Below are positions 15,001-18,000 of a DNA stretch of 50,987 nucleotides, piece by piece. The position numbers were made by a program. Origin of the DNA: Candidatus Nanohaloarchaea archaeon (GTDB lineage: Archaea; Nanohalarchaeota; Nanosalinia; Nanosalinales; Nanosalinaceae). The stretch is from positions 1 through 50,987 of the forward strand of contig JAWOFP010000006.1 of the NCBI GenBank assembly GCA_046497485.1. Direction: 5' to 3'. Numbering within the stretch: position 1 is the first letter of the stretch; every line of letters begins with the position of its first letter.

Positions 15001-18000
15001 TGTGAGATTCGGCATCTCTTCCTTAACTACTTCAGTAATATAACTTTCAAGCTCTTCTCTCAGCTCTAAGTCCGACTCAAGGTTATCAACTACAGATTCC
15101 AGTAAGGCCTGTTCCTTTTCCCCTATTTCAGCGCCGGTAGATTTCTCAGCTAATTCAGAGAAAGAATCAAGATCATTTCTATCAACTGAATCTTTGAGAA
15201 TCTTTGTCAAATGCTCGATATCATTTACTTCGTCCACAAGCTCCGGAAAATGGAGTGAGTACCAGTCCTTGAATCTCTCATCTTTTTCTTTAATTGAGGC
15301 CTCGACATTGTCCAACATCTTGACAGCTTTTACAAGATGCTTCTCCCTGTCTTCCTCAGCCAGTTCTTCACGAGTCTCATCCAATGCTTCTTCAACTATA
15401 TCATTCGGCATCTACATCAAGCCCCATCATTCTAATCTTCTTCTCAACTTGTTCAACTTTTCGATTAAGGCCTGAAGCAATATTCTTCGTATCTGTAGTC
15501 CCAAAGCTTTCGAGAATATATCTTTCTTCCGTCCGTGAGAAAGGCTTCCAATCCGCACTTGTATCAAACTCATCACCAAGCATGAACTCCTCAAGCTCCT
15601 CGTTACTTAACTCAGTCCGGTTATTCTTCAGGAACTCGATTTCTCCTTTACTCCATTCAGTATCATTACCTGTTTCATTCTTATTCAAGGCCTTTTTCTC
15701 CATCTTCTCCTTATGAGTCATCTGCTCATCCAAGACTTTCTTGGCCTCATCAACCAGTTCATCCTTAATTTCCTCACGCTTCATACACTAAAATAGGGCT
15801 CAAAGCTTCAAAAGTCTGATCATCAAAAAATGTATTTAAGAAAATAACCACCTATATCGATTATATCGGAGCGGTGTTGGTCCAGTGGCCTAAGACCCCG
15901 GCCTTCCAAGCCGGTGACCCGGGTTCAAATCCCGGACGCCGCATCTTTCATTCTATAGAGCCTAATCAAATATATTTTTTAGGTAGATAATTACTACAAT
16001 GGCAGATTACAAGATAGGTAATAAAGTTGCTATTGAGGTTCTAGAAGAGAATATTGTGGAGTGGGCGGAAAATGAAGATTTAGGCTTCGAAATGTATGTT
16101 AGAAATTTAATGGGTTGCCATTTGGAAGAAAATTCTGCAAGTAAAGTGAGTTATGATATACAGAAAATTGGCTCTACTCTACACGATGAAGATATAGAAC
16201 GAAAAACTGCTGACGAAATATTTGATCGTATTATCAATGCAGATCCTAGAGATGATGACAAAATTTTTGGTTTAGAGCCTGAACGCGCCCAGATACAGTA
16301 CTAAAGCGCCTACAATACTATGCATTAAACCTACCTGTAACTTTCATTTTCTAGGCCTATATCGGCTAAGAATAAGTGTGAGGCTATTTGATGTGAGCAG
16401 ACTTTCCCTTGGAATGGGCATGGACAGAATGTTTCTCCTGTATCAATATCTACTCCGACGGTGTAAGAACCTGAGCCGCCTTCTACCTTGAACTGGTAGC
16501 GGTCATCGGACTGAAGCTCTAACTCTATCTTTCCTTCATCTATGAGTCTTCTGGCTTTCCCCCATTTATGGAGGTTCTCTTTCTTTTCCCGCGACATTTC
16601 CTCTGGATCCACAGATAGAATTTGGAGAACCTATTTTTAAGACGAGAAGGGTAAAGGCCTATAACTCCTGCGATTTGATTCAAAGGTATGACAGAGGAAA
16701 AATTTGTACTGGATACCTCGCTTTTCCTAGCGAACCAGATAAGAGAAGATGAGGACAGCTTAAATGAAGCGGTTGAAAGGCTGTTAGATTCTATGAATGA
16801 TTCCAGCCTTGATCTGTATATGCCGCCAACGACTTTTGAAGAATTACTGGATATTCTTGAAGGATCAGTTGAGCCTGAGAATATGAAAGAGTTGAAAACG
16901 ACTATTACTAGAAAAAGTCCTTCCCGTTACGAAGTTGATATTCCTGGCGAGATGCTTTACAGGTTCATCGGAGAGATGAGAGAAAGAGTAGATAAAGGCC
17001 TTAGACTTTCAGAAAAAGCTGTCAGAAAGGATTTAGATGAGATTGATGATCCTGAGCACGAGCATTATACCAAGACCGATGTAGTAGTCTCTAATCTTAG
17101 GGATAATTACAAGGAGAAGATGCGGAAAGGCACCATCGATTCAAAAGAAGACATTGATCTACTGCTTTTAGCTCGAGAAATTGAGGCTTCTATCGTGACA
17201 GAGGACCAGGGAGTTATTAACTGGTGTGAGGACCTCGGTGTGAGCTATATCAAAGGGAGAGATTTCCCGGATTTTCTTGAAAGTCGCTAGAGGATAAAAG
17301 AATTCCAGTCAAACACTAGACTGTGAAAAAGGCAAAAACCATTGACCAGCTCTACGAAGTAGTCAAAGAGCATGAAACAGTTCTGACATCTGATGCCGGT
17401 CTGGCCGACGCACTGAATAGAAGACTTGACAGGCCTGTAAAGGGAAGTTTTGCATCGACACCGGGAAGACTGGCATCTTCTGGAGACGAGGAATCGAAGA
17501 AAGATGTCTTTCTGAAAGCAGTTGAAGAGACTGATTATTCTTGGAAGCAGATTTCTTATGCTTTAGATAAAATCTTTGAGGCCTGGAAACACACCGGCGA
17601 ACTCGAGAAAATACTGAGTTTTGAGAGATATGATAAAGAACTATTCCAGGATATTATAGAGATTACCAAGTCATCGAATACTTCATTTCATTCAGTGGAA
17701 GAGAAAGAATTTTCAGGAGATATCGCAGTAGTGAACCTTTACCAATTTAACGAACTGGATAAAACCACTTTACCAGATGAATTTAGGGAGTACAACCTTC
17801 TAACAGACGAGGAGACAAATTTAGAGGATTTCAACATCTATGAGTCAGGCCTGGACCTGGTGAATAGCCTTATAGATAATATAGAGTCTCTGGGAGCGGA
17901 AAATATCGGGGTAGTTGTAAGGCCTGAATCAAGGTATCAAAGCCTCTTGGAAGCATACTTCAAGTCAAAGAATATCTCTTATACGAGAGACGAGAATATT

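Follow-up and report, generated by a model that had tools for sequence, protein, structure and literature searches.

Which enzyme removes the 5' leaders of pre-tRNAs in a nanohaloarchaeon that carries a gene for HARP, the protein-only RNase P, is the question raised by the locus described here. According to Daniels 2019, all DPANN lack HARP, and no archaeon has it without the RNP proteins, a state of knowledge that the earlier survey's finding on this DNA had rendered correctly. Reviews up to 2025 hold moreover that the RNA-based RNase P (RNP) is retained in all archaea with a HARP gene, that in archaea HARP does no housekeeping work and that HARP-only life is verified in Aquificaceae only, the HARP-only organisms so far being the Aquificaceae and a few other bacteria. 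Knock-outs of HARP in H. volcanii and M. mazei are without phenotype, and the turnover of HARP has been reported to be 10-100 fold below that of RNP; these two points, together with a lysine in place of the arginine R129, the 66-contig state of the bin and the divergent RNase P RNAs of the family, are among the points against a replacement of RNP by HARP. In the parts of the literature open to our search nothing was found on HARP or protein-only RNase P in nanohaloarchaea, and the available portion of the supplements of Seshadri and Gopalan 2025 holds no Nanohalo, Nanosalin, DPANN or Nanoarchaeota term.

The HARP gene and its neighbourhood

The window, that is the whole stretch of 50,987 nucleotides analysed here from a genome referred to as G000, contains the following features around the gene.

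15871..15943, + strand: tRNA-Gly(TCC) gene (RF00005 61.6 bits, aragorn; A at -1; TATA-like box start at -36)
16626..16687, + strand: putative promoter spacer 5' of HARP (TATA-like TTTTTAAG at 16634-16641 and CTATAAC at 16659-16665, read from the sequence)
16688..17290, + strand: HARP gene (PIN_5, protein-only RNase P; ATG start, 200 aa)
17323..22499, + strand: AddB-like nuclease and UvrD/AddA-like helicase genes (PF12705, PF00580, PF13361), right-hand neighbours of HARP
22508..22825, - strand: FeS-cluster assembly gene (PF01883 70.4 bits), left flank of the Rpp21 deletion
22826..22880, no strand: Rpp21 slot, now a 55-nt spacer between the FeS-assembly and THUMP genes (synteny with G023 and G024)
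22881..23792, + strand: THUMP-domain methyltransferase gene (PF01170 83.9 bits, PF02926 31.9 bits), right flank of the Rpp21 deletion
24432..25340, + strand: RNase Z gene, for the tRNA 3'-end endonuclease (PF12706 74.4 bits, PF13691 32.9 bits)

The claim of a full-length HARP at this place holds, since both curated profiles of the family are matched over full length and far above their cut-offs, PF08745 (PIN_5) with 202.1 bits (E 8.8e-60, cut-off 27, model positions 1-201 of 205) and TIGR03875 with 202 bits against 95.3. PDB chains described as 'RNA-free ribonuclease P' align over the full length as well (E 7.8e-34 to 2.3e-26). In Foldseek, the AF2 model of the protein (pLDDT 85.8) reaches a TMq of 0.81-0.84 to HARP structures (0.84 to 8kda_E, 0.82-0.83 to 8kd9), whereas it stays at or below 0.45 to other PIN proteins. 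HARPs are marked by a PIN-like metallonuclease core with a spike-helix domain, and the model has two long helices, 87-113 and 129-146. The catalytic aspartates D7, D138, D142 and D161 of the Aquifex HARP Aq880 (numbering of the eLife paper) all have their counterparts in D9, D151, D155 and D173; in the alignment the last three are the same in all 112 HARPs, and D9 is an aspartate in 111 with a gap in the remaining one. When chain 8kd9_A is counted, the fourth aspartate is residue 160, as against D161 in the eLife paper. As for R125 and R129, which Aq880 needs for pre-tRNA binding, the former corresponds to R138, while the latter has become K142, with lysine in all 21 of 21 nanohaloarchaeal HARPs and the charge kept. 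The C-terminal helices are required for the oligomers of HARP, whose assemblies range from tetramers to dodecamers, and the C-terminus of the window HARP aligns through its residue 199 to residue 186 of the 190 in Aq880.

Between G000 and its relative G025, HARP has a pN of 0.135 and a pS of 0.87, and this pN is lower than those of the neighbouring AddB-like (0.22) and UvrD-like (0.16) genes; the GC content around the gene, 0.405, is similar to that of the remaining window. Judged by its sequence, the HARP of G000 is catalytically intact and under purifying selection. It would be expressed, the TATA-like elements in front of it being a putative promoter, it would form oligomers like the solved HARPs, and it would cut pre-tRNA at its four-aspartate metal site, with the upstream tRNA-Gly(TCC) as one presumed substrate. 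An AddB homolog adjoins HARP or is near it also in G025, G039, G040 and G041.

The RNA-based enzyme in G000 and across its order

The assembly of G000 comprises 967,558 b in 66 contigs and is 97.35% complete. None of the four protein subunits Rpp29, Rpp30, Pop5 and Rpp21 (PF01868, PF01876, PF01900, PF04032) has a match in it at E<=10, in agreement with the survey's finding, and for each of them the place where the gene would be expected can be inspected. On contig C62, which holds the window, the start codon of the FeS-assembly gene ends at 22825 and the THUMP ORF, listed from a GTG at 22818, probably starts at the ATG at 22881; in G023, by comparison, Rpp21 (4682-4888, +) stands between the FeS (4275-4613, -) and THUMP (4897-5811, +) genes, G024 has the same order, and the slot in the HARP genome G025 resembles that of G000. 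The earlier description of a conserved UvrD-[Rpp21]-THUMP locus was right in that Rpp21 is missing from it; the arrangement itself is conserved only within genus g1, and elsewhere Rpp21 lies far from UvrD. On C24 the Rpp30-Pop5 pair is missing between conserved flanking genes with about 28 nt remaining, and on C37 Rpp29 is missing from the order uL29-SUI1-[ ]-uS17. The Rpp29 slot holds two orphan ORFs, which were considered as a diverged Rpp29 and rejected, as they gave neither a BLASTP alignment at E<=100 nor a Pfam or NCBIfam match. The genes for Rpp29, Rpp30, Pop5 and Rpp21 are thus cleanly deleted within the contiguous syntenic stretches of C62, C24 and C37, and by profiles and synteny alike G000 is without RNP protein subunits.

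For the RNA subunit, RF02357 has no match in the contigs of G000, and a profile built from 25 RNase P RNAs of the family finds nothing better than 3.3 bits (E 2.9), although in a positive control such a profile, built without genus g1, recovers the g1 RNAs at 132, 129 and 88 bits. The CR-V motif of RNase P RNA is absent from G000 at up to one mismatch, and BLASTN of the same-genus RNA loci returns only flanking genes and tRNAs. Three candidates were discarded as chance: the sole RF00373 match, of 14.1 bits (C51:24368-24508), which the survey's finding had already so judged and which is contained in an ORF of 102 aa that weakly matches ParE_toxin; on C38, a 'CAGAAACGA' motif and, at a distance of 83 nt, a CR-I-like one, both contained in an acidic ORF of 356 aa that RF00373 does not match; and a faint nhmmer match (C46:3878-3901) 5' of tRNA-Arg(TCT), inside an M20 peptidase gene. 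Accordingly the earlier claim that G000 has no RNase P RNA stands with regard to both Rfam models and to the family profile.

It could still be argued that RNP is there undetected, with its RNA in an assembly gap or too divergent and its proteins beyond the reach of Pfam, and that HARP plays the accessory part it has in other archaea. The RNA locus of G023 and G024 reads, in order, RNase P RNA, a 52-aa ORF, tRNA-Arg(TCT), a small ORF and arginase. In the 66-contig bin of G000 this locus is rearranged: arginase opens C46, as had been noted before (PF00491, ORF 142-915), tRNA-Arg(TCT) follows 3.3 kb downstream behind the M20 peptidase gene, and the 52-aa ORF is found nowhere in the assembly, so that a gap could hold this ORF and, in principle, the RNA. 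Moreover the RNase P RNAs of the family are divergent, with only 12 of 42 matches reaching the Rfam gathering score and RF00373 scores going down to 20 bits, and some RNP genomes have no detectable Rpp29 or Rpp21. Against this stand the four protein genes gone from their own syntenic slots inside contigs, which means that their absence is not simply a failure of detection, the silence of a family-specific RNA profile that passed its positive control, and the fact that the 14-bit match and the two motif coincidences all fall within protein-coding genes. RNP RNA was found neither in G000, with its 66 contigs and partly unassembled orthologous locus, nor in G039 and G050, which are single contigs, likewise have none of the five RNP parts and have no CR-V motif. 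We regard a hidden RNP as very improbable.

The distribution of both enzymes was then compared over 70 genomes of the order; a phylum-level search for HARP returned the same 70, to which the comparison is confined. HARP exceeds the cut-off in eight of them (G000, G025, G021, G039, G040, G041, G050 and G051), and each of the eight has 0 of 5 RNP parts, G039 and G050 as single contigs included; the lack of the RNA, Rpp29 and Rpp30 in all eight had been reported previously. RNase P RNA (RF00373, E<=1e-3) is present in 42 of the 70, where the earlier count had been 43; Rpp30 in 60, and in 40 of the 49 other family members; Rpp29 in 44; Rpp21 in 52; and Pop5 in 59, the former counts for Rpp29 in the order and Rpp30 in the family being recovered exactly. 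At least one RNP part occurs in 61 of the 62 genomes without HARP, and no genome has both systems (0/70). The Rpp29 slot is empty in all six other HARP genomes in which both flanks are available and occupied in 17 of the 21 genomes without HARP, after 13 of 40 genomes had been dropped because the upstream anchor gene was missing from the stretch fetched. A pattern search with the invariant motif finds an exact CR-V in all five closed RNP genomes examined, and with up to one mismatch allowed it finds none in the HARP genomes G039, G050, G021, G040 and G041. Across these 70 related genomes, HARP and RNP RNase P are mutually exclusive.

tRNA genes and the need for 5' processing

If RNP is gone, RNase P might simply be unneeded, with leaderless tRNAs as in Nanoarchaeum equitans and with another job for HARP, for instance other RNA processing. 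Nanoarchaeum equitans has been described as making leaderless tRNAs from uniformly spaced promoters, and it is not known to have an RNase P of any kind. In favour of such a state, the TATA-like box is nearer to the tRNA 5' end in HARP genomes, with a median start of -35 as against -39 in RNP genomes, and its position is more peaked, since starts at -33 or -34 make up 21 of 60 cases compared with 7 of 55 (MWU p 0.0096; this and the statistics on position -1 given below were corrected neither for relatedness nor for the four tests made); the comparison uses larger tRNA samples, a first set with 4 usable RNP tRNA genes having been discarded. A box that is closer and more peaked means that the leaders are probably very short. 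However, the TATA-like starts of HARP genomes are still scattered from -22 as far as -52, 48 of the 60 falling between -31 and -39, the first nucleotide of tRNA-Tyr is a C, and tRNA-Arg(TCT) and tRNA-Arg(ACG) stand in tandem with a spacer of 2 nt, for which an endonuclease is needed. With HARP present, the boxes spread and tRNA genes in tandem, G000 does not have the N. equitans combination of no RNase P and uniform promoters. Besides, a dispensable RNase P would give no reason why HARP, with all its catalytic residues, is kept in exactly the eight genomes without RNP.

The nucleotide at -1 also differs between the two sets of genomes. It is A in 60 of 107 tRNA genes of HARP genomes and in 36 of 104 of RNP genomes (Fisher p 0.0023), and U in 16 of 107 and 30 of 104 (p 0.019), respectively. 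Within each of the four HARP lineages the share of A is 53-61%; within genus g1 alone the difference is non-significant (p 0.23), and the RNP genus g15 has A in 7 of 8. The rise of A(-1) in HARP genomes has the same direction as in Aquifex, where 38 of 44 tRNA genes have A at -1, and it hints at co-evolution with HARP. As the shift fits a HARP cleavage at the -1/+1 site, it too speaks against leaderless tRNAs, an explanation that we consider quite improbable.

Nanohaloarchaea are host-dependent, and this may favour a different arrangement, in which HARP and the RNA ligase Rnl3 jointly act on small RNAs, those of the C/D-box type or others, while the host or an unknown enzyme produces the tRNA 5' ends. 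Such a joint role has been proposed for HARP-bearing prokaryotes by Seshadri and Gopalan, with Rnl3 in 665 of 751 HARP-positive genomes, and the NCBI family name 'RNA ligase partner protein' points the same way, a name under which no papers were found. On the other hand, PF18330, the C-terminal domain of Rnl3, is found in 0 of the 70 genomes, all eight HARP genomes included, a count to be read with a Haloferax control genome that is negative too; PRORP (PF16953) is absent from G000, and no candidate for another 5' enzyme emerged. There seems very little chance that this arrangement applies.

To sum up for G000, every test run agrees with a complete replacement of RNP by HARP. This is what the survey's finding had proposed, and the proposal now draws on four protein deletions where it had one, on an RNA profile with its control and on the absence of CR-V. 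We think it quite likely that the intact HARP is the only RNase P of this genome and removes the 5' leaders of its pre-tRNAs, RNP having been lost with its RNA and with Rpp29, Rpp30, Pop5 and Rpp21; from the genome we infer HARP to be the sole tRNA 5' maturase.

Origin of HARP and comparison with known systems

In a species tree of 12 proteins (G034 left out, with 21% of columns filled), the HARP genomes fall in four separate clades. In the HARP trees, by contrast, the nanohaloarchaeal HARPs form one clade, sister to the haloarchaeal HARPs and not nested within them; haloarchaeal HARPs are 46-53% identical to the window HARP, in line with the roughly 48% given earlier. With a sister placement of this kind, the previously suggested acquisition from Halobacteria is only partly supported: the haloarchaeal HARPs are indeed the nearest, while donor and direction are not given by the tree. 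The proposed course of events is that an early member of the family received a single HARP gene, its source being related to the haloarchaeal HARPs, that this gene then coexisted with RNP, and that RNP was lost in at least four lineages and HARP in the others. For the family as a whole, the chances are about even that an old acquisition and a long coexistence, which in every case ended with just one of the two enzymes, were followed by at least four replacements of RNP, with the cleavage site (A at -1, shorter leaders) co-evolving with HARP each time.

If this is true, HARP and RNP are interchangeable in archaea as housekeeping enzymes. HARP without RNP is found in eight archaeal genomes, of which two are closed, in contrast to the archaea covered by the reviews to 2025, and as the change recurs in four lineages, the capacity of HARP for all archaeal tRNA 5' maturation becomes testable. 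Close relatives that differ in just the type of RNase P are suited to tests of why the ribozyme is usually kept, and the sister species of one genus, G000 and G025 against G026, G024 and G023, would amount to a natural swap experiment. The case bears moreover on the loss of a universal RNA-world relic, on genome reduction in DPANN symbionts and on the co-evolution of substrates with a new enzyme.

Among known systems, the Aquificaceae with HARPs such as Aq880 of Aquifex aeolicus share with G000 the protein family, the fold (TMq 0.82-0.83 to 8kd9, 32-33% identity) and the four aspartates, and in both the genome lacks the RNP enzyme and A is over-represented at -1 of the tRNA genes. They differ in that the host here is an archaeon, so that the RNA and four specific proteins were lost and not rnpA and rnpB, and a mesophilic halophile rather than a thermophile, in that A is less strongly preferred at -1 (56% here, as against the Aquifex ratio above), and in the K at R129, the activity of the nanohaloarchaeal HARP being predicted from sequence. 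The closest sequence relatives are the haloarchaeal and other euryarchaeal HARPs (Haloferax volcanii, Methanosarcina mazei), the haloarchaeal ones as sister clade, but those archaea keep a housekeeping RNP, of which G000 has no part. With Nanoarchaeum equitans, G000 shares a reduced symbiotic DPANN genome, the loss of RNP RNase P and a short promoter-to-tRNA spacing; unlike it, G000 keeps a HARP under purifying selection, non-uniform promoter spacing and tandem tRNA genes. Finally, as with eukaryotic PRORP, whose architecture (PPR plus NYN) is unrelated, the protein-only and the RNP forms exclude each other, in the case of PRORP after an inferred coexistence.

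A full-length protein-only RNase P

The gene of HARP, a protein-only RNase P of the PIN_5 family, is located on contig C62 of the studied genome G000, an assembly of 967,558 b in 66 contigs that is 97.35% complete:

16688-17290, forward strand: HARP ORF, 200 codons, ATG start

Our comparisons bear out the survey's finding of a full-length HARP. The ORF scores 202.1 bits against Pfam PIN_5 (PF08745, model positions 1-201 of 205) and 202 bits against NCBIfam TIGR03875 (cut-off 95.3), and the whole length of the protein is matched by 7 different PDB sequences that bear the name 'RNA-free ribonuclease P' (E values between 7.8e-34 and 2.3e-26). 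Its AlphaFold2 model (alignment A1; mean pLDDT 85.8) predicts a fold close to the solved HARPs 7e8o, 8kda, 8kd9 and 7f3e, with query-normalised TM-scores of 0.81-0.84, and ordinary PIN/VapC proteins reach a TM of at most 0.45 against the same model. Moreover, the aspartates D7, D138, D142 and D161, described as indispensable in Aq880 in the eLife structure paper, correspond in a HMMER alignment to the Aq880 chain to the window protein's D9, D151, D155 and D173; the last three are invariant in 112 of 112 aligned HARPs, and D9 is an aspartate in 111 with a gap in one. In the alignment R138 is the counterpart of Aq880 R125, and K142 that of the essential R129; every one of the 21 nanohaloarchaeal HARPs has K at this position, where the remaining 91 have R, which makes K142 a clade-specific substitution of nanohaloarchaeal HARPs.

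Compared with the partial ortholog in the genome G025, the HARP gene has a pN of 0.135 and a saturated pS of 0.87, while the pN of its neighbours is higher (AddB-like 0.22, UvrD-like 0.16). The GC content near the gene (0.405) is similar to that of the remaining window, and the flanking genes share 63-92% identity with their counterparts in genomes of the same genus; the contig therefore belongs to this organism and does not stem from haloarchaeal contamination. Divergently oriented to HARP, a 93-aa ORF with a CPCP...C..H motif (16331-16612, reverse strand) matches no Pfam or NCBIfam family; near UvrD in G058, which has the RNA-based enzyme, there is a homolog of 68% identity, so this ORF is not tied to HARP.

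Components of the RNA-based enzyme in G000

The survey had further claimed that G000 lacks the RNA-based RNase P (RNP), and the observation of HARP present with all five RNP parts (RNase P RNA, Rpp29, Rpp30, Pop5, Rpp21) absent from the assembly is confirmed. Profiles of the four proteins give no match in G000 at E<=10, RF02357 gives none, and no PRORP was found there. RF00373 gives a single match at E<=10, of 14.1 bits, which was rejected as a chance hit within a 102-aa ParE-like ORF; this ORF (C51:24314-24622, or L001:1447-1755 in the extracted stretch, forward strand) has a weak ParE_toxin match of 20.9 bits, under the cut-off. The RNase P RNAs of the order are divergent, with only 12 of 42 order-wide matches reaching the Rfam gathering score, and those of family f1 (e.g. 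L030-L034, L188-L207) score 20-118 bits on RF00373 and have variable insertions, but their CR-I and CR-V motifs remain sharply conserved. Because of this divergence a nhmmer profile was built from 25 family RNAs; its best match in G000 has 3.3 bits (E 2.9), and a control profile without same-genus sequences recovers the RNAs of the relatives G024, G023 and G026 with 132, 129 and 88 bits. In 5 of 5 closed RNP genomes the RNA locus contains an exact copy of the invariant 17-nt CR-V motif; with one mismatch or fewer the motif occurs neither in G000 nor in the HARP genomes G039, G050, G021, G040 and G041.

The conserved gene order tells where the protein genes would be expected. G023 and G024 have an FeS-assembly gene, Rpp21 and a THUMP gene in this order, and G026 has UvrD followed by Rpp21; the slot in G000 is a spacer of 55 nt, between the FeS gene start (22825) and the THUMP ATG (22881), with G025 alike, so that Rpp21 is cleanly missing from the UvrD-THUMP locus as the survey had described. 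Rpp30 and Pop5 lie between two conserved genes in G023, G024 and G026, and these flanking genes are about 28 nt apart on contig C24 of G000. For Rpp29, the order uS3, uL29, SUI1, Rpp29, uS17, uL14 of G024 is kept on contig C37 of G000, where two orphan ORFs take the Rpp29 position:

C37:14007-14312 and 14363-14779 (L063:1605-1889 and 1961-2353), reverse strand: orphan ORFs of 94 and 130 aa in the Rpp29 slot of the ribosomal-protein operon

Neither Pfam nor NCBIfam has a match to these ORFs, the operon regions of 40 relatives, G025 included, contain no homolog of them, and their reading as diverged Rpp29 was rejected for lack of any BLASTP similarity to that protein. After 13 of 40 genomes were dropped for a missing anchor gene, the SUI1-uS17 interval is without Rpp29 in all 6 further HARP genomes where both flanks could be located, and contains it in 17 of 21 non-HARP genomes (G037, one of the four misses, has a Pfam match there).

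The survey's reservation that the RNA could sit in an assembly gap near contig C46 stands in part. The locus in G023 and G024 runs RNase P RNA, 52-aa ORF, tRNA-Arg(TCT), small ORF, arginase. In the rearranged locus of G000 the first gene of C46 is arginase (PF00491), and tRNA-Arg(TCT), shifted relative to it, follows 3.3 kb downstream, immediately after a gene for an M20 peptidase. Nowhere in the G000 assembly is the 52-aa ORF found, and a gap may therefore contain it. By synteny, an RNase P RNA might in principle lie there as well; the profile and motif searches found no such RNA.

Distribution and descent of HARP

Among the 70 Nanosalinales genomes, to which the phylum-level search was identical in coverage, HARP exceeds the cut-off in eight: G000 and G025 (genus g1), G021 (g2), G039-G041 (g12), and G050 and G051 (g16). 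All eight have 0 of the 5 RNP parts, including the single-contig genomes G039 and G050, in agreement with the survey. At least one part is present in 61 of the 62 non-HARP genomes, and both systems occur together in 0 of 70. The exception, G022 (g2, 79% complete, sister to the HARP-bearing G021), has neither, most likely because its HARP is simply unassembled. On these genomic grounds, a complete replacement of the RNP by HARP in G000 is supported. Separately, genus g21 (G065-G069; G065 is a single contig) has Rpp30 and Pop5 in 5 of 5 genomes, the RNA in 3, and Rpp29 and Rpp21 in one (G067); its RNP may be reduced and lack the protein pair of the specificity domain, or these two proteins may be too diverged for detection.

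In a species tree built by a quick IQ-TREE search from the concatenation of 12 ribosomal proteins in 40 genomes (1,897 columns), the HARP genomes form four separate clades: g1 resolves as (G024,(G026,(G025,G000))), g12 stands beside the RNP genus g15, g16 groups with g5, g3, g6 and g7, and g2 with g11, g13, g20, g9 and g21. The well-supported branches imply at least four changes of state. The eight HARPs themselves form one clade (UFBoot 97, SH-aLRT 94 in a carefully built tree of 29 rows; SH-aLRT 98 in one of 112 rows), and the nanohaloarchaeal clade is sister to the haloarchaeal HARPs, not nested among them (94/90 and 92), with Thermococcales and others outside the pair. The survey's proposed acquisition from the Halobacteria lineage is thus supported in part.

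Within the HARP clade g2 and g16 come together (90/89), matching the species tree, and the loosely placed g1 and g12 are compatible with it. HARP lies beside or near an AddB-like gene in G000, G025 and G039-G041, and in G050 within a G000-type block, flanked on one side by homologs of the window genes at 13583-15411 and on the other by the THUMP and RNase Z genes; different genes occupy the site in G026. Such a gene order common to several genera points to common descent, and the between-genus identity of HARP (52-56%) is comparable to that of UvrD (53-55%). On the simplest reading, one old acquisition of HARP would have been followed by coexistence with the RNP and reciprocal loss, the RNP being lost at least four times. 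Old HARP transfers within the family may instead have produced the same distribution, and the data are compatible with them.

tRNA genes and known HARP systems

G000 has 39 tRNA matches, and its tRNA-Tyr begins with C. The tRNA-Arg(TCT) gene (C46:4164-4296) has 133 nt with an intron, while that of G023 and G024 is intronless with 75 nt; it stands in tandem with tRNA-Arg(ACG) (C46:4299-4373) at a 2-nt spacer. CCA directly follows 0 of 29 aragorn-called genes. tRNA-Arg(GCG) occurs twice at the end of a contig (C23:4-75 and C46:21241-21312), with the same 60-nt sequence upstream of both copies, and the ends of C23 and C46 probably overlap.

According to Davydov et al. (2025), A occupies position -1 in 38 of 44 Aquifex tRNA transcripts, favouring HARP. 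With tRNA coordinates from RF00005, and in statistics uncorrected for relatedness and multiple testing, HARP genomes have A at -1 in 60 of 107 tRNA genes versus 36 of 104 in RNP genomes (Fisher p 0.0023) and U in 16 of 107 versus 30 of 104 (p 0.019), and the median start of the TATA-like box is -35 (n=60) versus -39 (n=55; MWU p 0.0096). By HARP genus the counts of A are 19/36 (g1), 15/27 (g12), 14/23 (g16) and 12/21 (g2). Excluding G000 and genus g1, the difference is 41/71 versus 24/71 (p 0.007); within g1 alone it is not significant (p 0.23), and in the RNP genus g15 the count of A is 7 of 8. HARP genomes are no richer in A from -12 to -2 (0.34 versus 0.39). These data give a hint that tRNA genes may have co-evolved with HARP, with leaders that would be short but not absent.

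Rnl3, the HARP partner proposed by Seshadri and Gopalan (2025), has no match (PF18330) in any of the 70 genomes, and likewise none in a Haloferax control genome. Some nanohaloarchaeal homologs carry the NCBI labels 'RNA ligase partner protein' or 'hypothetical protein', so these genes are already in databases; our literature search found no paper noting nanohaloarchaeal HARPs. Seshadri and Gopalan (2025) count 573 archaeal HARP genomes, with nanohaloarchaeal orders not among the names in the text seen and no nanohaloarchaeal or DPANN taxon names found in the supplements as far as accessible. As the survey had rightly stated of the literature, Daniels et al. (2019) report that all DPANN are without HARP and that archaeal HARP never occurs without RNP proteins, and Rossmanith et al. 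(2024) that HARP-bearing archaea also have the RNP.
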